This document shows positions 15,332 to 64,000 of a DNA stretch of 64,000 nt, in pieces (positions within the stretch are counted from its first letter, which is position 1; each line of letters starts with the position of its first letter). This stretch comes from Styela clava (Eukaryota), in the NCBI RefSeq assembly GCF_964204865.1, contig NC_135261.1:1550001-1614000 (forward strand), written 5' to 3'. Under the pieces are notes generated by a model, which did not search any database, was not told the origin of the DNA, and saw nothing but the letters and a program-made list of their open reading frames with translations. Both the position numbers and the translations under genes were made by a program.

Positions 15332-16233
15332 GAAATTTCCAAAAATTATCTTAATTTAAAAAAGAACGTTTATTTAGTGCTCTTTGGGAAGTGGATATGA
15401 ATATTTAAATAGCAAGTTTCAAATAAAAAATAGTCAAATAATAAATTTTTGAAATATATTTTCGAATGTTACCGATTTAGAACATTTCTTTGCTTTGCAA
15501 TTTAAGAGTCGCTTGTGCTGCACACTAACACAAATGTATTTTTGTAACGTTTTGTCCGACCCAAATCAGACTTCCTCAGACAAGCAGTTTACGTGCATGG
15601 ACTTAATGGCGAAGGAAACTGTAATCACCCAACGGTTAGGTGAACCACCCCACGTCGGCGAGGTGTCAAGCAATCCTCTCGCATATAATCATCTTCGTAT
15701 GGGATTCGAAGTTCGAACCGGCATAGGGTAATCAGAGATGCGGTGGCAAGCGTATTCCCAACAGTTAGCTCGATACACCACTGAGTTGCTTCAATTCGAG
15801 TGCAGAATCATTATATGCATTCACTGTCCAATATCTCCTTATAATACGATATTTATATTTAACACGAGGGTGCTTCTTGTCTTGTTACTGGATGGGAATA
15901 GCTTACAATTGAATTTATTTCTTCCTATCTTGATGCAATTTCAACCTAATTAGGTCATGCGAGTGCAACTGAATTTCAGCGATTTTTTATTATGAGGCAT
16001 TTTATCATCTAAACTCTCTATAAGTAGCAACTGATACATAAAGGGATACTTTCTTTTGAAAGAACCGATTTTTCCTGTTTTGCATTGCCTACCCAATTAC
16101 TTACAAACTGGGTGGTGACCATGGGGATTGACAAAAGTTAGGCAATTAGAAATTGACATGTCAGAAGTTACTGGCCTGAATTTTTCCAGTACAGCATTGC
16201 CTAGCCAATTTATTACCCACTGAGTTTCTCGTC

Positions 16234-17208
16234 CACATGTTAGTGTTTAGATATGTTGTGCCTAGACTGTATTTTATTGACCTTTGACCCCTGACTTTCT
16301 CATCCGCAATCAAATTTGCTATGTAATTCAAATTTATCTTCTATTTCACATTGGTCAGGGACGTAGCCAGGAGGGTGTTTTTGGGTGTCGCCCCATTTTG
16401 AAATGTAAAAAAAATAAAAGCATCTTTTTGTATCACACAGAGCAATTCTTCGTAGATTGAAACGCTTTTTAGACCTCCATTACTCGTGAAAACACACGTT
16501 TTCCAGCGTTCGGTCGGACCCGCGAGCTGTTTCGATCTAACTTGGCAAATAGAAATTTCAGAACCCCCCCCCCCCCATGTTGTGCCTAGACTGTATTTTA
16601 TTGACCTTTGACCCCTGACTTTCTCATCCGCAATCAAATTTGCTATCTTAGTATCTAATTCAAATTTATTTTGTGTTTCACATTGGTGTTCACATGTTAG
16701 TGTTTAGATATGTTGTGCCTAGAATGTATTTTAATGACCTTTGCCCCCTGACTTTCTCATCCGCAATCAAATTTGCTATGTAATTCAAATTTATCTTGTG
16801 TTTCACATTAGTGTTCACATGTTAGTGTTTAGATATGTTGTGCCTAGAATGAATTTTAATGACCTTTGACCCCTGACTTTCTCATCTGCAATTAAATTTG
16901 CTATGTAAATCCAATTTATTTTGTGTTCCACATTGGTGTTCAAATGTTAGTGTTTAGATATGTTGTGCCTAGAATGTATTTTAATAAACTTTGACCCCTG
17001 GATTTCTCATCTGCAATCAAATTTGCTATGTGAATCAAACTTATTTTGTGTTTCACATTGGTGTTCACATGTTAGTGTTTAGATATGTTGTGCCTAGAAT
17101 GAATTTTAATGACCTTTGACCCCTGACTTTCTCATCCACAATCAATTTTGCTATTTAAATCAAATTTATTTTGTAATTCACATTGGTGTTCACATGTTAG
17201 TGTTTAGA
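16234..17208. repeat. ~125-bp tandem minisatellite (~6-7 units), interrupted at ~16356-16577 by a CAGGG-type MITE fragment
   Basis: Unit CACATGTTAGTGTTTAGATATGTTGTGCCTAG..GACCTTTGACCCCTGACTTTCTCATC.. repeats at ~125-bp spacing. Confidence 0.9.
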
Positions 17209-17897
17209 TTTGTAAAAATTTTTCATAGCAAATATCTTTAGTTTTCTGTTTGTAGTTCGAATTGAGTGCAAAATTCATTATATGCATTGTATTTATCTGT
17301 CCTAAATTGTTGTTTTGTTTCATTACCCTCTGCGTGTTCCACAACAGATTGGCTTGTTTATTTACTCTTTCCACTAACTGGGATGGCTCGGGGACTCCTC
17401 TCATTGGGCAACAAAAAAAAAATCTAATTTTAAGCTCAATAATTGTAAAAATCCAACAACAATTATTAGAGAACATGCCACTTTGTTATTAGAAAACATG
17501 CCACTTTTATTCCTTGACTAACATTTATCAATTTACGGTTTTATTCTACAAGTAATACGTACTTCGTACCTCCTAACGTAGCGTCGTATGCTATACCAAC
17601 ACCACAGTAATTGTTAGGCGCTTACAATAATAAACAGGAGGGCCATAAGAGCTTAAAGCCGCCTGACCCCATAGTAGGTTAAGAACCACTGGCATAGCAC
17701 AATGTGCCAGCTATCAAATCGACCTATTCTGAATCAGGTCTTGTCTATTTTTCATCTGATAGATATTTGTGTGCTAGTAAAACATTATATTTTATTTTTG
17801 TCAACATCATTATTTATCATTTTACTGTTCTAAGACAAAGTTTAATTTGTTTTATTTATTCTATCATAGAGGTATTATTTAGAAAAAAAATAACAGA

Positions 17898-29916
<12,019 letters not shown>

Positions 29917-41314: not shown

Positions 41315-42409
41315 TTACATTAAAGAGCATCCGCTGCTCTTCTCTATACCTTGATTAATATCATGTAATGCATTTGCAAGTTTCAATGCCTTTCTGGATG
41401 CCTCACAAGCCCAAACCCACTCTGTGGGAATGAATTCGACCCCATAATAAGCCCCAGCTATTGCTCCTGCCATAGAAGCTATCGTGTCAGAGTCATGGCC
41501 AACAGCTGCAGCTGATATAACACAACGCACCATTCCATTGTAACTAGATAACTCAGGTATTTGGTTTCGATTTAAAGTGTATAAAAAGAAAAATATCGCA
41601 GCTGGAACTGATTCAGTGGCACGTACATCCGTCCCGAGTTTTTCAATTATCTCCCCAGGGGAAACCCCATTTTCGGCTTTCAATAAACCAACTACACTTT
41701 CTATTTTTTCTTCGTAAATTTCCAACTCTTCTTTAGCCGGAGTGACTTCTTTCAGCTGTGCAATTAACTCGTGACAGAATTTTTCAGTGTCTTCAATTTT
41801 TCCCGATGTCATAGCTTTTTCAATCGCAAGCGCCTGAAGTACAGCACCATTAATACCCTTCGGATTTGAATGAGTAAGTCTTGATTGGTCCGCAGCAAGA
41901 GCCACCATTTCAGGGATATTATCGTGGTGGAATAACGTGACGGGAGACACACGCATTGCAGATCCATTACCGAACGATCCCGTTCTCATAAATTGTTCGC
42001 TGGCCGCTCTATAAACATCATGTTTGTATTCATCGATTCTTCGTTTCCGAAAACAATCCGTAACATGATTACCGTAGTTCCTACCCAGTGGGGAACGGAA
42101 ATAAGTATCTGAAAAACGCTTAGAAATATCATTGGGATCGTAGATTTTCATCCTGACTAAAGATTCCCCCAGGTCAAAGGTCATGCACGTGTCATCGGTA
42201 TATCGCACATAACCTTCTTCGATGCTAGAAAATCCAGATCTTCGTGCGTCAGTAACTTCGTCATTGATGGTATCATAATATGATTTCACAGTTTCATAAG
42301 GAAGTGTTTTCCAGTCATTTTCAAAGTTAGCTCCCAAACAATCTCCAAATAGTGCACCGAGAGATACTCCTTGAAACTTTGATAAAAGTGTTAATTCTTG
42401 TGCAGCCAT
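41315..42409 (-). CDS. ADPRS: ADP-ribosylhydrolase ARH3-like paralog B (364 aa, intronless CDS, C-terminal CSLM)
   Basis: GALFGDCLGA-FE, YTDDT, GSFGNGSAMRV, LTH, HDSDTIASMAGAIAGAYYG. Start placed at MAAQELTL by comparison with paralog A. Confidence 0.88.
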   Translation of the reverse strand: MAAQELTLLSKFQGVSLGALFGDCLGANFENDWKTLPYETVKSYYDTINDEVTDARRSGFSSIEEGYVRYTDDTCMTFDLGESLVRMKIYDPNDISKRFSDTYFRSPLGRNYGNHVTDCFRKRRIDEYKHDVYRAASEQFMRTGSFGNGSAMRVSPVTLFHHDNIPEMVALAADQSRLTHSNPKGINGAVLQALAIEKAMTSGKIEDTEKFCHELIAQLKEVTPAKEELEIYEEKIESVVGLLKAENGVSPGEIIEKLGTDVRATESVPAAIFFFLYTLNRNQIPELSSYNGMVRCVISAAAVGHDSDTIASMAGAIAGAYYGVEFIPTEWVWACEASRKALKLANALHDINQGIEKSSGCSLM

Positions 42410-45400
42410 TCCCAGATAATATATTAATTTATAACTTTTATTTAGCTGTGAATATATGAAGCAAATGATTAAAACACAGCACAATACAATGATACATATT
42501 CAGAATAAAGAAAATATTACTGCAATGAACTTTATAGTAATACTGTAAACACAAATATTATAGCACAGTAAAAATGCTAGTAGTAATGCTGAGCTGGGAC
42601 TTTCAAAAAAGACTTACCGGTACATATTATGTACAAGTAGTGGCCTCAGTAGGCTTATTAACTCCGAAATAGAGAAATATTAGCTGGGGATGATTGTAAA
42701 TAAGCTATAAACACAAAAATATTGTCTGAACAGAATGCAATGATAGGCAATATTTACATAGATGGAAAATCATAAAAAATTTTATGAACAACCCAACAAG
42801 TACAAAAAAGCAAAAATTTTATTGGTGGACTCAGAAGAGTATTGCAGAGACTCATTACTTATCGATTTTAATTGGTAAGTATGTTGATAGGTATTTGTCT
42901 GTCTGTATGTCTGTTAGATGCACGCCATATCTCACGAAAGCGAGATTGAATCTGCTCCAGATTTTGCATGTGCATTCAAGCGAGTTCTTAATTGATTAGT
43001 GATGGGACGCAAGGTGTCACTATGGAGTGAGGGCGCTGTTTTGGGGGATCCCCTAACTTTCGATCGATAAGTCTTCGGTCTCTGACCGATATTCTCTTTT
43101 GTTTATTATTCCAGACCCACGAGGTCAACATCAAAAACATGAAAATGCAAATAAAGTAGGCAAACTAAATAAAATATTGCAATGCCAACAAAAAAATAAT
43201 TGTAGCAGATCTTGAAAAGAAAATTTTCCCAATAATTAAATATGAACAGATTTATTTTGATAAAATTGTCCCAGGGAGAAGTATACAAATGTAATAGTTT
43301 TCTGACACCCCCTCCATCTTCGAAGTATTCAAAAGTTGAACTTACTAGGTCCAGCACTTGCTAAGAAATTCAATAAGTCTATATCTATGCGATACTTAAG
43401 TCCAGTTTCATGTACACCAATTGAAAAGGCCACATTGATAGCCCATCAGATAAGGTATCTTGGAATCGAATAATGATTGGAAAAGGATGTTAATTGTTTT
43501 TCTGTATCCTGTCAGAAACAATCAAAGATATTTAGTACGAATAAAATAGACATCTTACTGCAAACAGGTAAATTTGAAAAATGAAACAGTAATATTTATA
43601 TTTTAATATATATTAAAAATTTGTACTATAAACTATGAGAATAGCTTGTATTTTAATATAGCTGAAATCATCAATTAGAAGAGCCTATAAATTCACAGCC
43701 CTTTTTAGGAATATTCAAAACAAGGCCGCGAGAACTCAATAAGAAAATAAAGACAATGATGAGTGAATCTATAGAGACGACAACAAAACCCCGAGAGCCA
43801 TTCACCCTACAACGATTCAAGATTTTTTATTCTTTCTACTGTTCTCATTCATTTTATACAGCTTATTAGCAAGTTTCATAGCCTTATCAGAACCCTCACA
43901 AGCTGTGACCCATTCTGATGGGATAGAATCCACTCCATAATATGCGCCAGCTATTGCCCCTGCCATACAAGCAACTGTGTCAGAGTCATGGCTCACAGAA
44001 GTGGCGTAAAGAACAGTTCTAACCATGCCATTGTAAGTTGATAATGTTGGAACATTGTTAGTTTTTAGTGAGTGTAAGAAAAAGAAAATTGCTGGCGGAA
44101 CGGCCTGGATAGCTAACACACCCGTACCAAGTTTCGAGACAATTTCTCTTGGTGTAACTTCACTCTCTTTTTCAAGTAATTCCATCACATTTGACATTCC
44201 ATTTTCAAAAATTTCCATGTCTTCTTTAATAGGTGTGATTTCTTTAAATTGATCTAATAATTCTTGGCAAAATATTTTAGCATTATCAATTTTTCCCGAT
44301 GTCATAGCTTTTTCAATTGCAAGCGCTTGTAGTACGGCACCGTTGATTCCTCTTGGGTTTGTGTGGGTTAGCTTAGATTGCGCAACTACCAAGGTTAACA
44401 TCTCGATAATATTATCATGATGTAACAAAGCAACTGGTGAAACCCTCATAGCGGAACCGTTTCCATAGGAACCAGAACCACCAAACTGTTCACTTGCTGG
44501 TTTATAAACATCACCACGGCAACTGTTTTCTTTCAGTTCACTAAAGACTTTCGCAACATGTTTTCCGTAATTCCTTTCTTTTGGCGAAGCAAAAAACGTC
44601 TCTGTAAATCGCTTAGCGACATCTTGTGGCTTGAACTTCCTATTTTTAGTCAGCGATTTAGCAAGGTCAAAGGTCATGCAGGTGTCATCAGTGTAATGAA
44701 CAAAACCAGAATCAGCTTTTGGTGTTTCCATAGCAACCTTATCTTTGATTGTTTCATAATAAGAGATAACTTTTTCATATGGCAAAATGCTCCAATTATT
44801 TTCAAATTTAGCTCCCAAACAGTCCCCAAATAAAGCTCCGAGAGAAACTCCTTGGAACCTTGACAGAAGAGACAATTCCAATTCTTGAGTTGCCATATTT
44901 AAACCAAGATAACTAAAAATCTGGCATGAACAGTATGTTTATTTGTCACGTAAATAAAAAATTGACTACATTTAAAAGTTAGATGAATATACATATCCTG
45001 TCTTCAACCACAGTATACTGCAATAGCACCAATAACACTCGGCCATTCGTAACGCAAGGCACAGTACCGCATAGTTCTACGATTTCGAGAATAGCCCCAC
45101 ATTGAAAGACATCAATTATAACAGTTAGAGCATACCCTTCCTTTACAAGACGGTTGATTTACAAGACAGTCTGCGACTCCAAGAATAGTCCCACATTGAA
45201 ATATACATCAATTATAACAATAAGTGCAAACCCCTCTATTTAGGACAGTCTGGGCCTCCATATAGGCAAACCGACACTGCAGAATATAATAAAAGCAAGC
45301 GCAATCTAAAAACGTTACCATTGAATTCCTCAGAAAAAAATAGTTTGATTCACCAAAGGAAAAAGTATATTTTCATAGCATTAAGAAAAAAAAACCAACA

Positions 45401-45523
45401 CGATTAATTTAAATCATTACCAGTACCGTATCCGGACAAACATCAGAACATAATGTGATATGGCAGTTGAAGTCTAACTAGGCAATTCAAAATATTAAAA
45501 AAAACCTTGACATCGCAGTTTCA
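42008..45523 (+). repeat. Segmental duplication, copy 1 (direct repeat of 60085-64000)
   Basis: Colinear, near-identical sequence including intergenic DNA. Confidence 0.92.
43817..44896 (-). CDS. ADPRS: ADP-ribosylhydrolase ARH3-like paralog A (359 aa, intronless CDS)
   Basis: Same catalytic motifs: YTDDT, GSYGNGSAMRV, DSDTVACMAGAIAGAYYG. Confidence 0.9.
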   Translation of the reverse strand: MATQELELSLLSRFQGVSLGALFGDCLGAKFENNWSILPYEKVISYYETIKDKVAMETPKADSGFVHYTDDTCMTFDLAKSLTKNRKFKPQDVAKRFTETFFASPKERNYGKHVAKVFSELKENSCRGDVYKPASEQFGGSGSYGNGSAMRVSPVALLHHDNIIEMLTLVVAQSKLTHTNPRGINGAVLQALAIEKAMTSGKIDNAKIFCQELLDQFKEITPIKEDMEIFENGMSNVMELLEKESEVTPREIVSKLGTGVLAIQAVPPAIFFFLHSLKTNNVPTLSTYNGMVRTVLYATSVSHDSDTVACMAGAIAGAYYGVDSIPSEWVTACEGSDKAMKLANKLYKMNENSRKNKKS

Positions 45524-45738
45524 GAGCACGAGTTCAATTTTTTCACCTCAAATATGGTACCGGTACGGTACGGTACCTATCCTAGAGCTCAACTAATCCA
45601 AGATGGATCATCACTGAGACTTAGGTATATAAAATTCATAGTTATGTAGTCTAGCTCTCTGCCTCTCTCTCTTGTCACTTTCATTCTTTTACAAAAATCA
45701 TGACGATAAATACGTAGTACTCTACCACACCTAATTTT

Positions 45739-48207
45739 ACCTAGGTAAAGCTAGCGGCCACTTCCAGCGGACAGTTACCAATTTTTCCAAATTTGAACCC
45801 GCCATGTTCCACGACAGTTGTCGCGAATTCACTTAATTGCGGCTACATGGATGCAAAAAATTAGGTGATTCTCCCTTTTAGAAACTGACGACAGACCTGA
45901 AACATAATAAAAAACAAAAATGATTGAAACAACACATTTTTTCCTCGATAAAATGAATTATTGTTCAGAAGCTCATTTATCGACAAAATCTAAAATTCAA
46001 CTGAGTTGAAGCGTAATTTATGCAAGAAATAATTTTTTCTCATCCAATTCATTAATACAGTGAATTTGATGAAGATATATAAAACATATATTAAATTTTA
46101 AAACAATTCCACTATGCGGAAAGTTGGGAAATACCCCCCAATTAAAGGAAAATTTTTAGGAAATTGTCAAAATAACTCAGTTAAAGCGTCATTTATGCAG
46201 GAAATAATATTTTCTCATCCAATTCAGTAATACAGTGAACAGTACAGTGAAAAAAATGCACCTTGCGGAAAGTAAAAAAATTCCCCCCAGTTTAAGAAAA
46301 AAATATAGGAAATCTCAAATTTAACTCAGTTAAAGCGTAATTTAGGCAAGAAGGAATTTTTTCTCATCCAATTCATTAATGCAGTGTGTTTGGAGGACAA
46401 ATATAAAATACATATTAAAATTTAAAAAAAATCCACCGTGCGGAAAGTAGGGAATTCCCCCTCAATTAAAAAATATATATAAGAAATCGTCAATTTGACT
46501 CAGTTAAAGCGTAATTTAGGTAAGAAGGAATTTTTTCTCATCCAATTCATTAATGCAGTGTGTTTGGTGGACAAATATAAAATACATATTAAAAGTTAAA
46601 AAAAATCCACCATGCGGAAAGTAGCGAAATTCGGTACTCTCGAAATATGGACACAAAGATGACGCACAACCTGAATATAAAAGGTGTACCAGGATAGGTT
46701 CAGAATTAGAATCTAGATTGTACGCTTTTGGGAGCGCAGGGAATAACCCATTTATGCACAAATTAATTTTTTCTCATCCAATTTATTGATACAGTGTATT
46801 TGGTGGACGAATATAAAATACATATTAAAATTTAAAAAAAATCCACCGTGCGGAAAGTAGGGAAATTCCCCTCAATTGAAGAAAAAAATATAAGAAATTG
46901 TCAATTTGACTCAATTAAAGCGTAATTTAGGTAAGAAGGAATTTTTTCTCATCCAATTCATTAATGCAGTGTGTTTGGTGGACAAATATAAAATACATAT
47001 TGAAATTTAAAAAAAATCCACCGTGCGGAAAGTGGGGAAATTCCCCCCAATTTAATGGAAATATTTGAAAAATCGTCTATCCAACTCAGTTAAAGCATAA
47101 TTTATGCAAGAAAAAATATTTTCTCATCAAATTCATTAATACAATGTATTTGGTGGACAGATATAAAATACATATTAAAATTTAAAAAAAATCCACCGTG
47201 CGGAAAGTAGGGAAATTCCCCCCAATTTAATGGAAATATTTGAGAAATCGTCCATCCAACTCAGTTAAAAAATAATTTATGCAGGAAAGAATATTTTCTC
47301 ATCCAATTCATTAATACAGTGTATTTGGTGGACGAATATAAAATACATATTAAAATTTAAAAAAAATCCACCGTGCGGAAAGTAGGGAAATTCCCCTCAA
47401 TTGAAGAAAAAAATATAAGAAATTGTCAATTTGACTCAGTTAAAGCGTAATTTAGGTAAGAAGGAATTTTTTCTCATCCAATTCATTAATGCATTGTGTT
47501 TGGTGGACAAATATAAAATACATATTAAAATTTAAAAAAAATCCACCGTGCGGAAAGTAGGGAAATTCCCCTCAATTGAAGAAAAAAATATAGGAAATTG
47601 TCAATTTGACTCAGTTAAAGCGTAATTTAGGTAAGAAGGAATTTTTTCTCATCCAATTCATTAATGCAGTGTGTTTGGTGGACAAATATAAAATACATAT
47701 TGAAATTTAAAAAAAATCCACCGTGCGGAAAGTGGGGAAATTCCCCCCAATTTAATGGAAATATTTGAGAAATCGTCTATCCAACTCAGTTAAAGCATAA
47801 TTTATGCAAGAAAAAATATTTTCTCATCAAATTCATTGATACAATGTATTTGGTGGACAGATATAAAATACATATTAAAATTTAAAAAAAATCCACCGTG
47901 CGGAAAGTAGGGAAATTCCCCCCAATTAAAAAATATATATAAGAAATCGTCAATTTGTCTCAGTTAAAGCGTAATTTAGGTAAGAAGGAATTTTTTCTCA
48001 TCCAATTCATTAATGCAGTGTGTTTGGTGGACAAATATAAAATACATATTGAAAGTTAAAAAAAATCCACCATGCGGAAAGTAGGGAAATTCGGTACTCT
48101 CGAAATATGGACACAAAGATGACGCACAACCTGAATATAAAAGGTGTACCAGGATAGGTTCAGATTTAGAATCTAGATTGTACGCTTTTGGGAGCGCAGG
48201 GAATAAA
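45739..48207 (+). repeat. Left arm: ~260-bp outer module plus about 12 tandem ~176-bp units
   Basis: Unit CTCAGTTAAAGCGTAATTT..TTCTCATCCAATTCATTAAT..TCCACCGTGCGGAAAGTAGGGAAATTCCC. Confidence 0.92.
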
Positions 48208-48376
48208 TGACCGTCTCACTGCTACTGTTCCCGACAGACAACTCAGTAACAATTCTACCTCTACATGATTCCAAATGGGATATAAAAGTATAATTTATTC
48301 AATCACAAGCAATTAAATAATTTTTATAATTCGTTTGTAACTGTTCTCAAATTTTTTGATCGGCACATACTTTCAG

Positions 48377-49957
48377 ACTATTATTTACTCCTTTCAACTG
48401 ATGACAAAGAATCGCCGTGATGTTTACGTTATGGATAGTTATATTGCTGGTTGTGTTTTTCTCCAACATGCATCACCATCTAATGACTGATGTAAGTCAA
48501 TCTTTCAATCTTTGATGTTTTTAATTTTTCAGGCGGATAGGAAACAACCAATAAATATATCCGAGGCTCGAGAACCCCGGTGTAATTGATATGTATAAGT
48601 TGATTTCATGATTACTTTTGTTACAAAAATATGAAAAAAACAATTTGACGCCGAACACCTCGGATTTGAATGTAAAACTGCTGGAATATACTTGCGGAAC
48701 TATGATCGAAAACCATTGGTATAAACAAAATTAGGGTTGGAAAAATCGACATTGTTTTTTTATCTAAAAAGTCCATATTCATCTTTCCTACAACACTTTA
48801 ATATCATACTTATATCATCTCATTTGTTTTACAGTTAAATTTAGGAAACTATAGCGTGATTGTTTCTGCGTGCAGGATAAATGAAAATCACTGGGTTCTT
48901 TTGCTGAGGATGAAGTTTTGTTTTGAAATTTTAATAATATTCAATAAATAAGAAATTGTTGTGGCAAAATTACATATTGCCTTTTTGTATTTGATTCTTC
49001 ATTTTGATTCGAACAAAATATCTTTGCAATTCATTGACACAACGAGAATTAATTTCTACTTTCTGAATCCGTATGGAGGTTCAATTGAAGAGACCACTCA
49101 CGCATGTGAAAATTATAAGTGAGTTCAATTCCTGAAATACATCTTATCGTTAGCCATTTCAACTACAAGCTAAAGTAGGAACTCAATAAACCTTTACTTC
49201 ACTGTTGCCAGATCGCTTTCAAATCCTGGAGTGGATTTTTTAAAATGATCTTCTTTACAGTTATCCAGTCCTTTATTTTTAATATTCCCTTTCTCTTGTT
49301 GAAAGTATTCGGCTGTTTTTGTAAAAACGTGTCCTGTTCTTACAAGTAATATATAAACTACATAATCACATTGTACCAGTAACAAACTGTATTTACAATT
49401 GGAATGACATTGACAATTGTGAATGACATTGAAATTGAATGAAAAGTATTGATTTTAAAAATCAAGTTACATGAGAAATATATTAGTAAAACTGAATTTA
49501 CACACGTTACAACACACAGAAACTGGATGAATTTACGAAAAGAATGCGAAAACTGGACACCAACGGTTACTGAACATCCCATTCAGAGGGATGGATCCAG
49601 TTGTGGAATTTACGTGATAAAGGTATATAGGAAGTCATACAAATTTAATTATCCATACATCAGTATATGTTCTTTGTCAATTTATTCACAAGTTAAAAAA
49701 TACATTTTTGACAGACTGCGTGGAGACGTACTGCAGTTTTTGTGGGGAGACGGGAGAAGCAGAATGGGTAAGTAACCTAATAGGTGTTCAATAAACATGC
49801 AATATATAATTTTATATTCATGGTATTTTGACTTTTTTTAAAGATTGGCTGTGATGTGTGTCCGCGCTGGTTTCATGCTGGATGCTACAACGGAGATATT
49901 GCGGAGATATTGTACGTACTTTGGAAATGTCCAGCATACGAGGCCGGTTGGCATTAA
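48377..49957 (+). pseudogene. Decayed spliced Ulp1/C48 (SUMO protease-like) peptidase plus PHD finger gene inside the foldback element
   Basis: Exon-like blocks: 48377- TIIYSFQLM..DVYVMDSY; 48835- LNLGNYSVIVSACRINENHWVLL; 49030-49118 FIDTTRINFYFLNPYG; 49520-49622 HPIQRDGSSCGIYVIK; 49715-49767 YCSFCGETGEAEW; 49844-49957 IGCDVCPRWFHAGC..WKCPAY. Shows mutated splice sites, a phase gap and a final PHD Cys read as Tyr. Confidence 0.8.
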
Positions 49958-50068
49958 AACGCATTTGATGTAAAAATAAGTTTCAAAGGGTTGCCACTTG
50001 ACACTAACAAGTAGATCAAATGGCCATTTCCCGTTAACCTGTCCATTGAGTACAGAGCCATGAATATA

Positions 50069-51073
50069 CAGTAGAAGCGCTACCCACGAAATTAATTCGT
50101 TCCGAAGACCCGTCGTATTACATAAGGCGTTTTACCTGTAAATGCCCTAATCCGTTTTAAGTCCACGTAAAACTCGGACATCATTTTCGTATAAATTATA
50201 TTAATGCTTAAAATCCAACAACTACATGTTAGAATTAGATTACAGCATAATAAATAAACAAAGAACATACGGAAGGAAGTAAGAACATAGTAATAACGAA
50301 TAAAAACTAAGAACGGTATGCTTATGTACCTTTGTTTACCATCGTCATAATCAAATGATTGATTCCCAAATTACCGTCCGCCACTGATGGAGAATTAAGA
50401 CCTGAAAACTTGTTTTATTTTTCAAGTCGGTTTTTATTTGATTTGAGTCGGCGCTAATCTTTCATGTCTGGTGTTATTATTTTAATTTTGCTTATTGATA
50501 TCGCCAACTTAAAGTGAACGATATTGTCATCAACGACGTCGGGATAATGATAAAATCCGCGTTAGATATTAAATAACATTTAAAGGTCATTTTATAAACT
50601 CTTAATTGTAAGAAATGAAAAAAATTCCTGTTATGTTCGGTCGCTATCGAAATTGAGGGTGAAAACAATTAATTGCGACACAATTTGCTTTCAGATTTAT
50701 TGGAATAGACGATAATAATTGTGAATATTGTGTAATAATTGTAATTGCGCTTTTTGAATTTCTTTCATGCTGGCCATAATTTAGTGCCACAACGCGCACG
50801 GCTGATTTCAATTGCGATAAAAAATAGAATGGCTGTGAATATTTTTTTTTAAATCGAAAGTTTGACGGCGCTAGGAAATGTGCGTCATATTCGGTATTCT
50901 CAAAAACACCAAAAAAACGATATTCGAAGGTCGCAATATTCAAATATTAGGTTTGTATTGAACATCCCTGCATTAAATTAATCTAAAATGAACAAATATC
51001 ACTATGCAAGTTTTCGGAAAAGAATTGTTGGATTTTTCGTATCCAGAGCCTTTCGTACGGAGAGTTTCTACTG
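50069..51073. mobile_element. Old Tc1/pogo-type (TA TSD) non-autonomous element nested in the foldback core
   Basis: TA-CAGTAGAAGCGCTACCCACGAA ... TTCGTACGGAGAGTTTCTACTG-TA degenerate TIRs. Confidence 0.55.
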
Positions 51074-51736
51074 TATACAAGTTTTTCGTGATATTTTTTG
51101 CTTCCATTTTTTTGTGATTGGCGAATAAAAAACGATTTGTTGATTGATTCATGTGAAAACTTCATTTGGGAATTGAAAGTTTCTTCATACGTTTACAGTG
51201 ATCGTAGCGGCTGCTATCGATCGTATCGTCGTTTCTTCCAACGTCTTAGTACGGTGTGCCATACTTCCTTTAGCTCTTTAATACAGTTTCACAGTCTTTC
51301 AAATTCTGAGATATTTTTTAACAACAGCATTAAAAGGTTCGGCGACATACATACATACATATTCGACATAACAAATGAAGCGCCATAAGTGTCAAATCGT
51401 TACTAATCTTGATGACGCCACCTCATCTGTTAAGGTTGACAATACTATTCTGATTTAGGCTGCTGATGTACTGGGTTAAGGCTGCACGTTCACCTAAGGT
51501 GACCCAAAGATACCAGCATAAGTTACTACTGAGGTTTTAGGGAAGGTAGTGCTATATGGAGTGAGAGGGGGTGTTACGAGGTTGTAGTGTAAACCAATAA
51601 AATGTAATAAGAACATGATAAAACTTCAAAAATAATATTTAGTTATGGAGGAGAATGGGAATGATCAATAAATATGACAAGATTTCGCTTTAATTTATAT
51701 AAATTTACGATTCCGTTGATTTTAACATAAGTTAGA

Positions 51737-54734
51737 TTTCTTAAATATTTCCATTAAATTGGGGGGAATTTCCCCACTTTCCGCACGGTGGATTTTTTTT
51801 AAATTTTAATATGTATTTTATATTCGTCCACCAAATACACTGTATCAATAAATTGGATGAGAAAAAATTATTTTTTGCATAAATGGGTTATTCCCTGCGC
51901 TCCCAAAAGCGTACAATCTAGATTCTGAATCTGAACCTATCCAGGTACACCTTTAATATTCAGGTTGTGCGTCATCTTTGTGTCCATATTTCGAGAGTAC
52001 CGAATTTCCCTACTTTCCGCATGGTGGATTTTTTTTAACTTTTAATATGTATTTTATATTTGTCCACCAAACACACTGCATTAATGAATTGGATGAGAAA
52101 AAATTCCTTCTTACCTAAATTACGCTTTAACTGAGTCAAATTGACGATTTCTTATATATATTTTTTAATTGAGGGGGAATTCCCTACTTTCCGCACGGTG
52201 GATTTTTTTTAAATTTTAATATGTATTTTATATTTGTCCACCAAAAACACTGCATTAATGAATTGGATGAGAAAAAACTCTTTCTTACCTAAATTACGCT
52301 TTAACTGAGTCAAATTGACGATTTCTTATATTTTTTTATTCAATTGAGGGGAATTTCCCTACTTTCCGCACGGTGGATTTTTTTCAAATTTTAATATGTA
52401 TTTTATATTTGTCCACCAAATACACCGTATAAATGAATTGGATGAGAAAATATTCTTTCTTGAATAAATTACGCTTTAACTGAGTTAAATAGACGATTTC
52501 TCAAATATTTTCATCAAATTGGGGGGAATTTCCCTACTTTCCGCATGGTGGATTTTTTTTTTAAATTTCAATATATATTTTATATTCGTCCACCAAATAC
52601 ACTGTATTAATGAATTGGATGAGAAAATATTCTTTCTTGCATAAATTATTTTTTAACTAAGTTGGATAGACGATTTCTCAAATATTTCCATTAAATTGAG
52701 GGGAATTTCCCTACTTTCCGCATGGTGGATTTTTTTAAAATTTTGATATGTATTTTATATCTGTCCACCAAATACATTGTATCAATGAATTTGATGAGAA
52801 AATATTCTTTCTTGCATAAATTATGCTTTAACTGAGTTGGATAGACGATTTCTTAAATATTTCCATTAAATTGGGGGGAATTTCCCCACTTTCCGCACGG
52901 TGGATTTTTTTTAAATTTTAATATGTATTTTATATTCGTCCACCAAATACACTGTATCAATAAATTGGATGAGAAAAAATTATTTTTTGCATAAATGGGT
53001 TATTCCCTGCGCTCCCAAAAGCGTACAATCTAGATTCTAAATCTGAACCTATCCTGGTACACCTTTTATATTCAGGTTGTGCGTCATCTTTGTGTCCATA
53101 TTTCGAGAGTACCGAATTTCCCTACTTTCCGCATGGTGGATTTTTTTTAACTTTTAATATGTATTTTATATTTGTCCACCAAACACACTGCATTAATGAA
53201 TTGGATGAGAAAAAACTCCTTCTTACCTAAATTACGCTTTAACTGAGTCAAATTGACGATTTCTTATATTTTTTTCTTCAATTGAGGGGAATTTCCCTAC
53301 TTTCCGCACGGTGGATTTTTTTCAAATTTTAATATGTATTTTATATTTGTCCACCAATTACACTGTATTAATGAATTGGATGAGAAAATATTCTTTCTTG
53401 CATAAATTATTTTTTAACTGAGTTGGATAGACGATTTCTCAAATATTTTCATCAAATTGAGGGGAATTTCCCTACTTTTCGCATGGTGGATTTTTTTTAA
53501 ATTTTAATATGTATTTTATATTTGTCCACCAAATACATCGTATAAATGAATTGGATGAGAAAATATTCTTTCTTGAATAAATTACGCTTTAACTGAGTTA
53601 AATAGACGATTTCTCAAATATTTTCATCAAATTGGGGGGAATTTCCCTACTTTCCGCACGGTGGATTTTTTTTAAATTTCAATATGTATTTTATATTCGT
53701 CCACCAAATACACTGTATTAATGAATTGGATGAGAAATTATTCTTTCTTGCATAAATTATTTTTTAACTAAGTTGGATAGACGATTTCTTAAATATTTCC
53801 ATTAAATTGAGGGGAATTTCCCTACTTTCCGCATGGTGGATTTTTTTTAAATTTTAATATGTATTTTATATTTGTCCACCAAATATATTGTATTAATGAA
53901 TTGGATGAGAAAATATTCTTTCTTGCATAAATTATGCTTTAACTGAGTTGGATAGACGATTTTCTAAATATTTTCATTAAATTGAGGGGAATTTCCCTAC
54001 TTTCCGCACGGTGGATTTTTTTTAAATTTCAATATCCATTTTATATTTGTCCACCAAACTCATTGCATTAATGAATTGGATGAGAAAAAATTCCTTCTTA
54101 CCTAAATTACGCTTTAACTGAGTTAAATTGGAGATTTCCTATATTTTTTTCTTAAACTGGGGGGAATTTTTCTACTTTCCGCACGGTGGATTTTTTTTAA
54201 ATTTTAATATGTATTTTATATTTGTCCACCAAATACACTGTATTAATGAATTGGATGAGAAAATATTATTTCCTGCATAAATGACGCTTTAACTGAGTTA
54301 TATTGACAATTTCTTAAAAATTTTCCTTTAATTGGGGGGTATTTCCCAACTTTCCGCATAGTGAAATTGTTTTAAAATTTAATATATGTTTTATATATCT
54401 TCATCAAATTCACTGTATTAATGAATTGGATGAGAAAAAATTATTTCTTGCATAAATTACGCTTCAACTCAGTTAAATTTTAGATTTTGTCGATAAATGA
54501 GCTTCTGAGCAATAATTCATTTTATCGAGGAAAAAATGTGTTGTTTCAATCATTTTTGTTTTTTAATATGTTTCAGGTCTGTCGTCAGTTTCTAAAAGGG
54601 AGAATCACCTAATTTTTTGCATCCATGTAGCCGCAATTAAGTGAATTCGCGACAAATGTCGTGGAACATGGCGGGTTCAAATTTGGAAAAATTGGTAACT
54701 GTCCGCTGGAAGTGGCCGCTAGCTTTACCTAGGT
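51737..54734 (-). repeat. Right arm: about 15 inverted ~176-bp units plus outer module
   Basis: Reverse complement of the left-arm units; the outer ~260 bp differ from the left end at only about 4 positions. Confidence 0.92.
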
Positions 54735-55379
54735 CCTAATTTTGCATATTACTATCCTATTATCGTCTACCTCGGGGTGGTCCAAACCCAGGCCCGCGAC
54801 TACAGCCTACCAGGGTACCGGTACCGTATTTCTATAAAATTTCAATTATGTTTTTAACATAGCCTTGCGGAAATAAAATATCTCACTCTCTATAACTGCA
54901 CCGTCATAATTATGGGATGGTTGCGCTAACATTATTCACCGGAAATACGTACGTCTGCTGGAAAGTGAAGTCATGACGTATAATAATAAGTATAAGTTTA
55001 TTCCGACTCCATAATCAGCAATAGACGATAAAAAAATAGATAAAACAAAAGTAAAAGTAACTGATTATAGAATCGGGAAAGTGAACAAAACCTAGAGTAA
55101 GGTTTGAAACGTACAGATTTTAGATGGAAAGGTATTGATAAAAGGAGTAGTACGTGTTCGCTCACCCAAAAGTAAAAAAAAAAATCTAATTAAGGCACAC
55201 ACGCACACGCACACACACAATCATCGAGACATGATACTGTCGGAAGCGGAAAAAGCGAGACTTAAAAGTAAAAAGGAAGGAAAATATACAAACAAATGAA
55301 AAAAAAAATGAATAAATTCTTTTGTCACACCAAATTAATAATTTTATGAGGATTGCCAAATTGGATACCGAATTAGTCA

Positions 55380-56140: not shown

Positions 56141-56345
56141 AATCTACAACAAGCCAAATAACGACCAAATTATTTTAAATACTATTAATCAATAACAGTA
56201 TCGGTAATCATAATTAAAATTAATTAGGGCGGTATGATACAGAGGTAGGAAAATTGGTTAAGGGAATATATATGGTGTTTAAGGTTCAAGTAAGGTTTCT
56301 AGGGTCATGGATTATAGGCAAGTAACTTTAATTGAGGTTGTTGAT

Positions 56346-56559
56346 TGTTACTGTTCTACTTTATTCATTTCAAGCACTGCATTCTTTCACTTTCGTTTTG
56401 CTTCATTTATTATGTTCGCTCAGGCGTGAATAATTTTCTATTGTGTTTTGTCTTCTGTTTTCACTGTTTGGGCAGCATGCTCATTATTAGTTTGTGGTTT
56501 TGTTAATCTGTATTAATCGATGTATTGACTTTGAACTGAGTTGTATTGTCAACTTTACA
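56346..56559 (+). mobile_element. Solo LTR of the copia family at 25293
   Basis: Identical 214 bp; 5-bp TSD TTGAT on both sides; no PBS or internal sequence. Confidence 0.96.
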
Positions 56560-60081: not shown

Positions 60082-60486
60082 TTATCTATAAACATCATGT
60101 TTGTATTCATCGATTCTTCGTTTCCGAAAACAATCTGTAACATGATTACCGTAGTTCCTACCCAGTGGGGAACAGAAATAAGTATCTGAAAAACGCTTAG
60201 AAATATCATTGGGATCGTAGATTTTCATCCTGACTAAAGATTCCCCCAGGTCAAAGGTCATGCATGTGTCATCGGTATATCGCACATAACCTCATTCGAT
60301 GCTAGAAAATCCAGATCTTCGTGCGTCAGTAACTTCGTCATTGATGGTATCATAATATGATTTCACAGTTTCATAAGGAAGTGTTTTCCAGTCATTTTCA
60401 AAGTTAGCTCCCAAACAATCTCCAAATAGTGCACCGAGAGATACTCCTTGGGACTTTGATAAAAGTGTTAATTCTTGTGCAGCCAT
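60082..60486 (-). pseudogene. Truncated duplicate of ARH3 paralog B
   Basis: In-frame GAA>TGA at 60292-60294; homology ends after DVYR, where a hAT MITE fragment (59960-~60084) abuts it. Confidence 0.9.
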
Positions 60487-61495
60487 TCCCAGATAATATA
60501 TTAATTTATAACTTTTATTTAGCTGTGAATATATGAAGCAAATGATTAAAACACAGCACAATACAATGATACCAATTCAGAATAAAGAAAATATTACTGC
60601 AATAAACTTTATAGTAATACTGTAAACACAAATATTATAGCACAGTAAAAAAAATTACGGCTATCAATGGTGGAATCGCTACCAGAAAGAAATAAAATAG
60701 GCAGGTAATGCTGAGCTGGGACTTTCAAAAAAGACTTACCGGTACATATTATGTACAAGTAGTGGCCTCAGTAGGCTTATTAACTTCGAAATAGAGAAAT
60801 ATTAGCTGGGGATGATTGTAAATAAGCTATAAACACAAAAAAATTGTCTGAACAGAATGCAATGATAGGCAATATTTACATAGATGGAAAATCATAAAAA
60901 ATTTTATGAACAACCCAACAAGTACAAAAAAGCAAAAATTTTATTGGTGGACTCAGAAGAGTATTGCAGAGACTCATTACTTATCGATTTTAATTGGTAA
61001 GTATGTTGATAGGTATTTGTCTGTCTGTATGTCTGTTAGATGCATGCCATATCTCACGAAAGCGAGATTGAATCTGCTCCAGATTTTGCATGTGCATTCA
61101 AGCGAGTTCTTAATTGATTAGTGATGGGACGCAAGGTGTCACTATGGAGTGAGGGCGCTGTTTTGGGGGATCCCCTAACTTTCGATCGATAAGTCTTCGG
61201 TCTCTGACCGATATTCTCTTTTGTTTATTATTCCAGACCCACGAGGTCAACATCAAAAACATGGAAATGCAAATAAAGTAGGCAAACTAAATAAAATATT
61301 GCAATGCCAACAAAAAAATAATTGTAGCAGATACTGAAAAGAAAATTTTCCCAATAATTAAATGTGAACAGATTTTTTTTGATAAAATTGTCCCAGGGAG
61401 AAGTATACAAATGTAATAGTTTTCTGACACCCCCTCCATCTTCGAAGCATTCAAAACTTGAACTTACTAGGTCCAGCACTTGCTAAGAAATTCAA

Positions 61496-61863
61496 CGAGA
61501 ATATCGGTTGGAAACCCAAGACTTATCGATCGATAGTTAGGGGATCCCCCAAAACAGAAACTGCAGTTTCGATTCATCCACTCTTGTAACTTGCGCATCG
61601 CACACACACACTCGGCGGGTTTCAAAATTCTCTCGCTTTACAAAAATCTAGATCACTATATCAATAATTGATTGATAACTCGCTAATTATACTACATGAT
61701 TCGCCCAAAATCAATAGGCTGCTGGTCCGAGATAAGATGAATGCACATGCAAAATCTGGAGCAGATTTAATCTCGCTTTCGTGAGATATCGCGTGCATCT
61801 AACAGACACACAGACAGACAAATACCTATCAATATACTTACCGATCTTAAGATCGGTAAGTAA
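61496..61863 (-). mobile_element. DINE-1/Helentron-like element (H2) present only in duplicate copy 2
   Basis: Empty site TTCAA|TAAGTCT at ~43373 in copy 1; no duplication beyond an ambiguous AA. Confidence 0.8.
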
Positions 61864-62305
61864 TAAGTCTATATCTATGCGATACATAAGTCCAGTTTCA
61901 TGTACACCAATTGAAAAGGCCACATTGATAGCCCATCAGATAAGGTATCTTGGAATCGAATAATGATTGGAAAAGGATGTTAATTGTTTTTCTGTATCCT
62001 GTCAGAAACAATCAAAGATATTTAGTACGAATAAAATAGACATCTTACTGCAAACAGGTAAATTTAAAAAATGAAACAGTAATATTTATATTTTAATATA
62101 TATTAAAAATTTGTACCATAAACTATGAGAATAGCTTGTATTTTAATATAGCTAAAATCATCAATTAGAAGGCCTATGAATCCACAGCCCTTTTTAGGAA
62201 TATTCAAAACAAGGTCGCGAGAACTCAATAAGAAAACAAAGACAATGATGAGTGAATCTATAGAGACGACAACAAAACACCGAGAGCCATTCACAATATA
62301 ACGAG

Positions 62306-63385
62306 TCAAGATTTTTTATTCTTTCTACTGTTCTCATTCATTTTATACAGCTTATTAGCAAGTTTCATAGCCTTATCAGAACCCTCACAAGCTGTGACCC
62401 ATTCTGATGGGATAGAATCCACTCCATAATATGCGCCAGCTATTGCCCCTGCCATACAAGCAACTGTGTCAGAGTCATGGCTCACAGAAGTGGCGTAAAG
62501 AACAGTTCTAACCATGCCATTGTAAGTTGATAATGTTGGAACATTGTTAGTTTTTAGTGAGTGTAAGAAAAAGAAAATTGCTGGCGGAACGGCCTGGATA
62601 GCTAACACACCCGTACCAAGTTTCGAGACAATTTCTCTTGGTGTAACTTCACTCTCTTTTTCAAGTAATTCCATCACATTTGACATTCCATTTTCAAAAA
62701 TTTCCATGTCTTCTTTAATAGGTGTGATTTCTTTAAATTGATCTAATAATTCTTGGCAAAATATTTTAGCATTATCAATTTTTCCCGATGTCATAGCTTT
62801 TTCAATTGCAAGCGCTTGTAGTACGGCACCGTTGATTCCTCTTGGGTTTGTGTGGGTTAGCTTAGATTGCGCAACTACCAAGGTTAACATCTCGATAATA
62901 TTATCATGATGTAACAAAGCAACTGGTGAAACCCTCATAGCGGAACCGTTTCCATAGGAACCAGAACCACCAAACTGTTCACTTGCTGGTTTATAAACAT
63001 CACCACGGCAACTGTTTTCTTTCAGTTTACTAAAGACTTTCGCAACATGTCTTCCGTAATTCCTTTCTTTTGGCGAAGCAAAAAACGTCTCTGTAAATCG
63101 CTTAGCAACATCTTGTGGCTTATACTTCCTATTTTTAGTCAGCGATTTAGCAAGGTCAAATGTCATGCAGGTGTCATCAGTGTAATGAACAAAACCAGAA
63201 TCAGCTTTTGGTGTTCCCATAGCAACCTTATCTTTGATTGTTTCATAATAAGAGATAACTTTTTCATATGGCAAAACGCTCCAATTAGTTTCAAATTTAG
63301 CTCCCAAACAGTCCCCAAATAAAGCTCCGAGAGAAACTCCTTGGAACCTTGACAGAAGAGACAATTCCAATTCTTGAGTTGCCAT
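62306..63385 (-). CDS. ADPRS: ARH3-like paralog A, second intact copy (359 aa, 6 aa differences)
   Basis: Open, full-length ORF with catalytic motifs intact. Confidence 0.88.
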   Translation of the reverse strand: MATQELELSLLSRFQGVSLGALFGDCLGAKFETNWSVLPYEKVISYYETIKDKVAMGTPKADSGFVHYTDDTCMTFDLAKSLTKNRKYKPQDVAKRFTETFFASPKERNYGRHVAKVFSKLKENSCRGDVYKPASEQFGGSGSYGNGSAMRVSPVALLHHDNIIEMLTLVVAQSKLTHTNPRGINGAVLQALAIEKAMTSGKIDNAKIFCQELLDQFKEITPIKEDMEIFENGMSNVMELLEKESEVTPREIVSKLGTGVLAIQAVPPAIFFFLHSLKTNNVPTLSTYNGMVRTVLYATSVSHDSDTVACMAGAIAGAYYGVDSIPSEWVTACEGSDKAMKLANKLYKMNENSRKNKKS

Positions 63386-64000
63386 ATTTAAACCAAGATA
63401 ACTAAAAATCTGGCATGAACAGTATGTTTATTTGTCATGTAAATAAAAAATTGACTACATTTAAAAGTTAGATGAATATACATATCCTGTCTTCAACCAC
63501 AGTATACTGCAATAGCACTCGGCCATTCGTAACACAAGCCACAGTACGGCATAGTTCTACGATTTCGAGAATAGCCCCACATTGAAAGACATCAATTATA
63601 ACAGTTAGAGCATACCATTCCTTTACAAGACGGTTGATTTACAAGACAGTCTTCGATTCCAAGAATAGCCCCACATTGAAATACATCAATTATAACAATA
63701 AGTGCAAACCCCTCTATTTAGGACAGTCTGGGCCTCCATATAGGCAAACCGACACTGCAGAATATAATAAAAGCAAGCGCAATCTAAAAACGTTACCATT
63801 GAATTCCTCAGAAAAAAATAGTTCGATTCACCAAAGGAAAAAGTATATTTCCATAGCATTGAGAAAAAAAAACCAACACGATTAATTTAAATCATTACCG
63901 GTACCGTATCCGGACAAACATCAGAACATAATGTGATATGGAGTTAAAGTCTAACTAGGCAATTCAAAATATTAAAAAAAACCTTGACATCGCAGTTTCA

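Follow-up and report, generated by a model that had tools for sequence, protein, structure and literature searches.

The window analysed here, a stretch of 64,000 nucleotides from Styela clava (contig NC_135261.1, positions 1,550,001 to 1,614,000 of assembly GCF_964204865.1), contains a foldback element of 8,996 bp (45739-54734), whose interior encloses all six exon-like blocks of an Ulp1-like protease followed by a PHD finger (Table 1). That these exons lie inside a foldback element had been claimed in an earlier note made from the sequence alone, and the claim is borne out by the two inverted arms and the 9-bp target duplication. Both arms are 2.5-3 kb long and carry arrays of a 175-bp unit, and their outermost 499 bp are identical at 491 of 499 positions. 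A 117-bp insert, related to a dispersed host repeat, occurs twice in each arm (46630-46746, 48090-48206, 51888-52004 and 53000-53116); the four inserts are 97-100% alike and form a higher-order repeat with the 175-bp units. At three of the four insert ends the insert is followed by CCCATTTATGC, and the insert end at 48206 directly abuts coding-like sequence. We infer that this break in the left arm is a deletion point.

Table 1. Coordinates (window numbering) and basis of the features assigned to the foldback element
Feature	Position	Strand	Basis or remark
Left target-site duplication, CCTAATTTT	45730..45738		Flanks identical at 9 bp only (lengths 4-13 compared)
Left foldback arm	45739..48206	+	About 260 bp of unique end, 175-bp tandem units, two 117-bp inserts; stops directly after the second insert
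Tentative 5'-truncated coding piece, phase-0 GT donor at its end	48207..48287	+	Open frame and donor, by sequence alone; starts where the arm breaks off
Exon with start of Ulp1-like domain	48377..48491	+	AG/GT ends; no Pfam or PDB match; TGA at 48488-48490
Exon with catalytic His motif (NHW, 48886-48894)	48835..48903	+	Donor at 48904 reads CT
Exon with Asn at the position expected for catalytic Asp (LNP, 49063-49071)	49030..49118	+	Motif only; acceptor reads CAA
Exon with oxyanion Gln and catalytic Cys (QRDGSSCG, 49584-49607)	49520..49622	+	Pfam C48 E 0.069; 32/32 residues as in P0001
Deletion point; 94-base exon of other copies absent here	49691..49692		P0001 residues 33-63 unmatched in the window; X1/X5 contigs diverge before 49691
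First PHD exon (YCSFC..W)	49715..49767	+	Translation and alignment to P0001
Last exon: remainder of PHD finger, last Cys replaced by Tyr, stop TAA	49844..49957	+	Pfam PHD E 1.2e-5; 36/37 residues as in P0001
Nested TA-flanked element, 1,005 bp, Tc1/mariner-like, non-coding	50069..51073		27-nt imperfect inverted ends
Right foldback arm	51736..54734	-	Mirrors the left arm; numbers of 175-bp units differ
Right target-site duplication, CCTAATTTT	54735..54743		Exact 9-bp copy of the left flank

The nested element downstream of the exons is bordered in the sequencing-run contigs by loose contig ends at 50066 and 51070 and has a much higher depth; since deep contigs of run X1 span both its edges, it was probably inserted before the family spread. 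A search of Rfam across 45500-55000 returned no matches. Outside the element, the segments 42008-45523 and 60085-64000 form a duplication that is 95-98% identical, with its copies about 18 kb apart and with frames in both copies that we take to be ADP-ribosylhydrolase-like; it could reflect recent tandem duplication or else a haplotype in the assembly. The foldback element lies upstream of one of these frames, at a distance of about 840 bases, and the second copy of the duplication runs out with the window itself, about 215 bases before the position that matches the foldback insertion site. Other repeats in the window include a Copia-like LTR retroelement at 25290-29104 (217-bp terminal repeats 100% alike, a 1,117-codon open frame and, by eye, most of gag seemingly absent), a solo repeat of the same element at 56343-56559 (99% alike), and an array of five 125-bp units at 16195-17276.

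Translation of the interior agrees with the earlier description of six exon-like blocks carrying the named motifs in the stated order, and the phases match across 49118/49520 (two bases left over, one skipped) and 49767/49844 (0/0). The absence of an exon, also suspected earlier, is confirmed: phases clash at 49622/49715, and the RefSeq model P0001 holds 31 residues between those two blocks. The dead acceptor TTGCAA before 49030 is real, as is the replacement of Cys by Tyr at the last PHD ligand (CPAY, 49928-49939). Two lesions had been overlooked: the donor at 48904 reads CT instead of GT, and a TGA stands at 48488-48490. With a dead donor, a dead acceptor, an early stop and a missing exon, the verdict that this copy is dead is upheld. 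When the interior was shuffled 1000 times with dinucleotide composition preserved, the His pattern arose 22 times, the Cys pattern never, the PHD pattern once and all three jointly never; the patterns were drawn up after the sequence had been viewed, so these chance figures are flattering.

The interior was compared with 4 of 19 sequencing runs, all of them in the form of contigs, and what follows refers to the matches listed; none of the runs is recorded as RNA, the RNA nature of X7 and X9 being a guess. At 48904 run X5 has G, as expected for a GT donor, and the window and a deep X1 contig both have C. The ENHWVLL motif proposed earlier stands in its NHW part; its first residue does not, as position 48884 is G in X7, X1 and X5, giving GNHW in three of four runs (the fourth has no coverage there). 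An X5 contig over 48207-48711 contains eight gap letters, whose position near 48463 was worked out from distances to the contig ends, and the TGA at 48488-48490 probably derives from an 8-base loss near that point: with eight bases restored there, the first exon would be open to its donor and in phase with the His exon. A small candidate exon at 48533-48581 was discarded, as the phases join without it provided that the 8-base loss is real. Contigs of X1 and X5 have other letters before 49691 and so fit a deletion in the window copy at this point. Low X1 depth over 48915-49690 was rejected as a sign of deletion, because no contig spans the interval and depth is not copy number.

One X7 contig matches 49519-49622 exactly and is flanked by 74 other letters before and 94 after, the latter number being that of the bases in the missing exon. 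In depth this contig is equal to a piece that ends near 48902. A second X7 contig begins at 49843 with 53 letters to its left, which is the length of the first PHD exon. These contigs would correspond to a transcript of some copy, spliced so as to leave out the Asn exon of 89 bases, and such a splice would lose the frame.

The catalytic residues of peptidase C48 (Ulp1/SENP, clan CE) follow the order His, Asp, Gln, Cys. In the window the His, Gln and Cys motifs occur in order, with Asn at the Asp position. The earlier note had proposed a Pfam check of the joined peptide; in a scan run piece by piece (seven pieces), the PHD half of that expectation held and the protease half stayed short of it. 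The last exon matched PHD at 25.7 bits, above the cut-off of 24, and the QRDGSSCG exon matched Peptidase_C48 (PF02902) at 13.4 bits, below the cut-off of 20.7. Four pieces, including the His and Asn exons, had no match at E<=10, and one piece matched merely weak unrelated zinc fingers. In the four of six RefSeq relatives (described below) that have the corresponding part, C48 scores are higher, at 17.5-17.7 bits (E 0.003-0.004), still with half the domain scored, because these proteins include the exon that is missing from the window copy. A feature search of the Atlas with residues 1-64 of P0001 returned C48 clusters as 26 of 30 matches, and the best Atlas structure match for these residues reached a TM of 0.78, below the tool's bar for family naming. 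Searching the PDB with single protease exons gave nothing significant (one match, E 1.3), and with P0001 the 60 matches listed were PHD fingers, bar two weak unrelated ones, with no protease among them; a single-sequence AlphaFold model of P0001 had a mean pLDDT of 41 and was left out of fold searching. Taken together, exon blocks, motifs and the Pfam PHD match bear out a spliced Ulp1-like protease joined to a PHD finger, with the C48 match sub-threshold. Among the Atlas matches to another RefSeq relative, P0003, 8 of 30 carry both PHD and C48 at a score of 0.95, mostly from chordates, which makes Ulp1 with PHD a common pairing. As for substrates, CE-clan folds cut SUMO and also ubiquitin and NEDD8, according to passages of PMC4961225.

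Seven of the eight C4HC3 zinc ligands of the PHD finger are present, the last Cys being Tyr both here and in all six RefSeq proteins, so that the full set of eight is lacking; PHD nevertheless scores above the Pfam cut-off in 6/6 of these proteins. In the PDB search with P0001, the alignment pairs both tryptophans of the finger with tryptophans in the PHD of ALFIN-LIKE 3. Such tryptophans form the cage of H3K4me2/3 readers. The finger thus looks like an H3K4me reader, which would direct it to active chromatin, not heterochromatin, and with which a targeting role fits better than an anti-silencing one.

A search with the Gln/Cys exon returned one protein from one candidate, P0001, which is labelled Styela clava and is 100% identical over the exon. 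Its cluster comprises six members with 11 RefSeq accessions and six LOC numbers, on contigs of three different sizes. The six proteins are near-identical (97-100% alike, in models of 82-140 residues), and a second Cys is replaced by Tyr in two of them. None of the six reaches the His or the Asn exon, and without a His exon no RefSeq model can be a protease. The 11 accessions in Styela clava bear out that this is not a single-copy host gene, the outcome that the earlier note had named as fatal to its reading; moreover, because six near-identical proteins all carry the same Cys-to-Tyr replacement, the gene was multi-copy and damaged before spreading. The other RefSeq copies presumably lie between the same arms. 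Two of these proteins, P0004 and P0006, whose Styela clava entries bear the name PHD finger protein ALFIN-LIKE 3-like, are pieces of this transposon gene. Searches for longer relatives gave blanks of little weight: none among 37 candidates with the His/Asn region read through its intron, none for a 311-residue read-through against 1.84 billion representatives, and none among 62 candidates when P0001 was compared with longer proteins. In a metagenome scan of 138 stretches the one locus found was rejected as a chance match on a bacterial contig, and viral contigs gave no match.

Rehavkus elements, as defined in Repbase, are placed in or beside the Mutator/MULE superfamily. The Styela clava element has three of the features by which a Rehavkus/MULE foldback is recognised (a target duplication of 9 bp, tandem repeats next to the tips of long inverted ends, and a PHD finger), and we conclude that the locus probably derives, by deletion, from a Rehavkus-type foldback transposon of the Mutator superfamily and is no longer autonomous. 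No transposase was found in the interior when seven frames were compared with Pfam, as is expected of a non-autonomous derivative, and Pfam likewise found no Gypsy-like integrase there. The chain of coding blocks opens at splice acceptors partway through a domain, at 1-170 bases from the arm. Because the transposase is gone and the left arm appears to be cut where the coding sequence begins, these exons most likely formed the end of a Mutator/Rehavkus-type transposase that has since been deleted; the earlier proposal that they are separate cargo is not supported, Ulp1-PHD transposase tails being already in print. Weighing against a derivative of this kind are the protease score below the C48 cut-off (at best 17.7 versus 20.7 bits, for half the domain), the want of any match for the His and Asn exons, the Asn in place of the usual Asp, the record of Rehavkus from insects and annelids only, and the absence of any transposase found joined to exons or arms.

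Under the derivative reading, the parent would have been one spliced gene encoding a transposase, then the Ulp1-like protease, then the PHD finger. The promoter and the transposase would have been lost in a deletion that began within the left arm (48206) and reached as far as the protease start, and the stump would have been copied by a transposase made elsewhere that bound the arm repeats and cut with a 9-base stagger. The leftover exons would then have decayed as passengers, the tail having been damaged before the family spread. As to what the tail did in the parent, we suggest tentatively, giving the idea somewhat short of an even chance, that it served the transposase itself: the PHD finger would dock on H3K4-methylated active chromatin, and the protease would strip one of the ubiquitin-like tags SUMO, ubiquitin and NEDD8, either from the transposase or from the repair or chromatin proteins of the site. 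Removal of tags at the transposition site would agree with the repair idea put forward in a passage of Bao 2010 (PMC2836005).

It is unlikely that the exons were instead captured, the arms having taken up, in Pack-TIR fashion, the 3' portion of a gene that came from an unrelated transposon (Ginger1, for example) or from the host and never served the element. The sharp 48206/48207 junction suits capture as well as deletion, the interior already contains one unrelated insert (50069-51073), and Ginger1-9_HM is described as having Ulp1, PHD and two introns (PMC2836005). Yet no end of a second element is found around the exons, the RefSeq models bear no conserved host gene name beyond the automatic PHD label, and the arms together with the 9-bp duplication point to a group for which a PHD-bearing transposase is described (PMC6446971).

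We consider it quite improbable that the parent element encoded, as a gene of its own, a deSUMOylase that was directed to chromatin and lifted host silencing, as an animal counterpart of VANC/KIU. Piwi silencing in flies requires the SUMO machinery according to part of PMC7919418, Ulp1-bearing VANC genes are presented as part of a plant anti-silencing system (PMC13317346), and the X7 contig is compatible with a spliced transcript of some copy; but there is neither a start codon nor a 5' exon such as a separate gene would have, all six database proteins are broken, the finger resembles readers of active marks, not of heterochromatin, and the SUMO activity of plant KIU proteases is doubted in a passage of PMC6117577. 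Anti-silencing by the transposase tail itself deserves equally little credence: here an intact, active tunicate foldback element would encode a transposase-linked His-Asn-Cys Ulp1 protease, brought to chromatin by the PHD finger, that removes SUMO and lifts piRNA/SUMO-dependent silencing. If the anti-silencing reading were true, it would amount to a transposon-encoded enzymatic anti-silencer in a chordate. Near-identical, recent copies imply that a source of transposase existed lately; an intact gene may therefore survive in the species and would make the function of transposon Ulp1 domains testable. Finally, a domesticated or otherwise useful short product, with the 82-140-residue models as real PHD proteins expressed from the copies, is highly improbable in spite of the 11 annotations and of X7 contigs that match the exon edges 49519, 49622 and 49843, as all models are without one zinc ligand and none has a His exon, P0003 starts inside an intron, the suggested X7 splice breaks the frame by skipping the 89-base exon, and copies 97-100% alike are what recent transposition would be expected to leave.

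With the deletion derivative preferred, the element is decayed and non-autonomous, and its layout is one already known for transposons: real but ordinary. Through it, foldback elements of the Rehavkus type probably gain tunicates as hosts, and no fewer than 11 RefSeq entries for Styela clava, some of them named PHD finger protein ALFIN-LIKE 3-like, are shown to be transposon debris, not host genes. The earlier note had ranked the locus as its best candidate for an under-described system; this is not supported, as Ulp1-PHD transposases, the Rehavkus PHD finger and Ulp1-bearing anti-silencing genes have all been published. Our literature search, which did not extend to subscription papers or to Repbase Reports (where Rehavkus is described), found no paper on this Styela family and none assaying an animal transposon Ulp1, and the available text of PMC13359780 and PMC6431247 holds no passage on Ulp1 or PHD.

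Among the systems compared, the plant VANDAL MULEs share an Ulp1-like C48 domain on a Mutator-like element and an anti-silencing context: a 2026 review lists KAONASHI/KIU and VANC as their Ulp1-bearing anti-silencing genes, with the role of Ulp1 unknown (PMC13317346), and the KIU proteases are judged unlikely to act on SUMO in the relevant part of PMC6117577. They differ from the Styela clava element in that KIU is a separate gene in non-TIR elements, that VANC has a DNA-targeting part, and that no PHD finger is named in the passages concerned; no VANC-like sequence was found in the Styela clava element. The Drosophila NOF-FB foldback elements also have tandem repeats within long inverted arms, as described in part of 10.64898/2026.09.13.751287, and differ in host and in repeat unit, the likeness being by description only.

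Ginger1 is set apart by the kilobase arms, the 9-bp duplication and the absence of an integrase from the interior of the Styela clava element. Target duplications in Ginger1 are 4 bp long, as against 9 bp here. Its inverted ends are given as 44-270 bp (PMC2836005), versus arms of 2.5-3 kb. The layout of the coding part is close: passages of the same 2010 paper report intron-containing Ginger1 transposases with a C-terminal Ulp1 and the presence of Ulp1 in Mutators of hydra and lancelet, and its Fig. 1e legend refers to an Ulp1 and PHD alignment of Ginger1 and Mutator transposases; with Ginger1-9_HM, an animal DNA transposon with introns and a C-terminal Ulp1 followed by PHD is on record (PMC2836005). 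A C-terminal PHD finger is also reported on MULE-type transposases of Ciona (PMC1702500).

The closest likeness is to Rehavkus, described in the available passages as foldback elements with long inverted ends and subterminal tandem repeats (10.1101/2024.12.02.626372) and as having 9-bp duplications, a PHD finger, one ORF and a length of 4.9-18.5 kb (PMC6446971). The Styela clava copy differs in being without a transposase, in carrying protease exons where the passages describing Rehavkus name PHD and no protease, and in its tunicate host, Rehavkus having been recorded from arthropods and annelids only in the 2019 survey (PMC6446971); it shares with Rehavkus the 9-bp duplication, the long inverted ends with subterminal tandem repeats, a length that falls within the described range at about 9 kb, and the PHD finger (PMC6446971; 10.1101/2024.12.02.626372).
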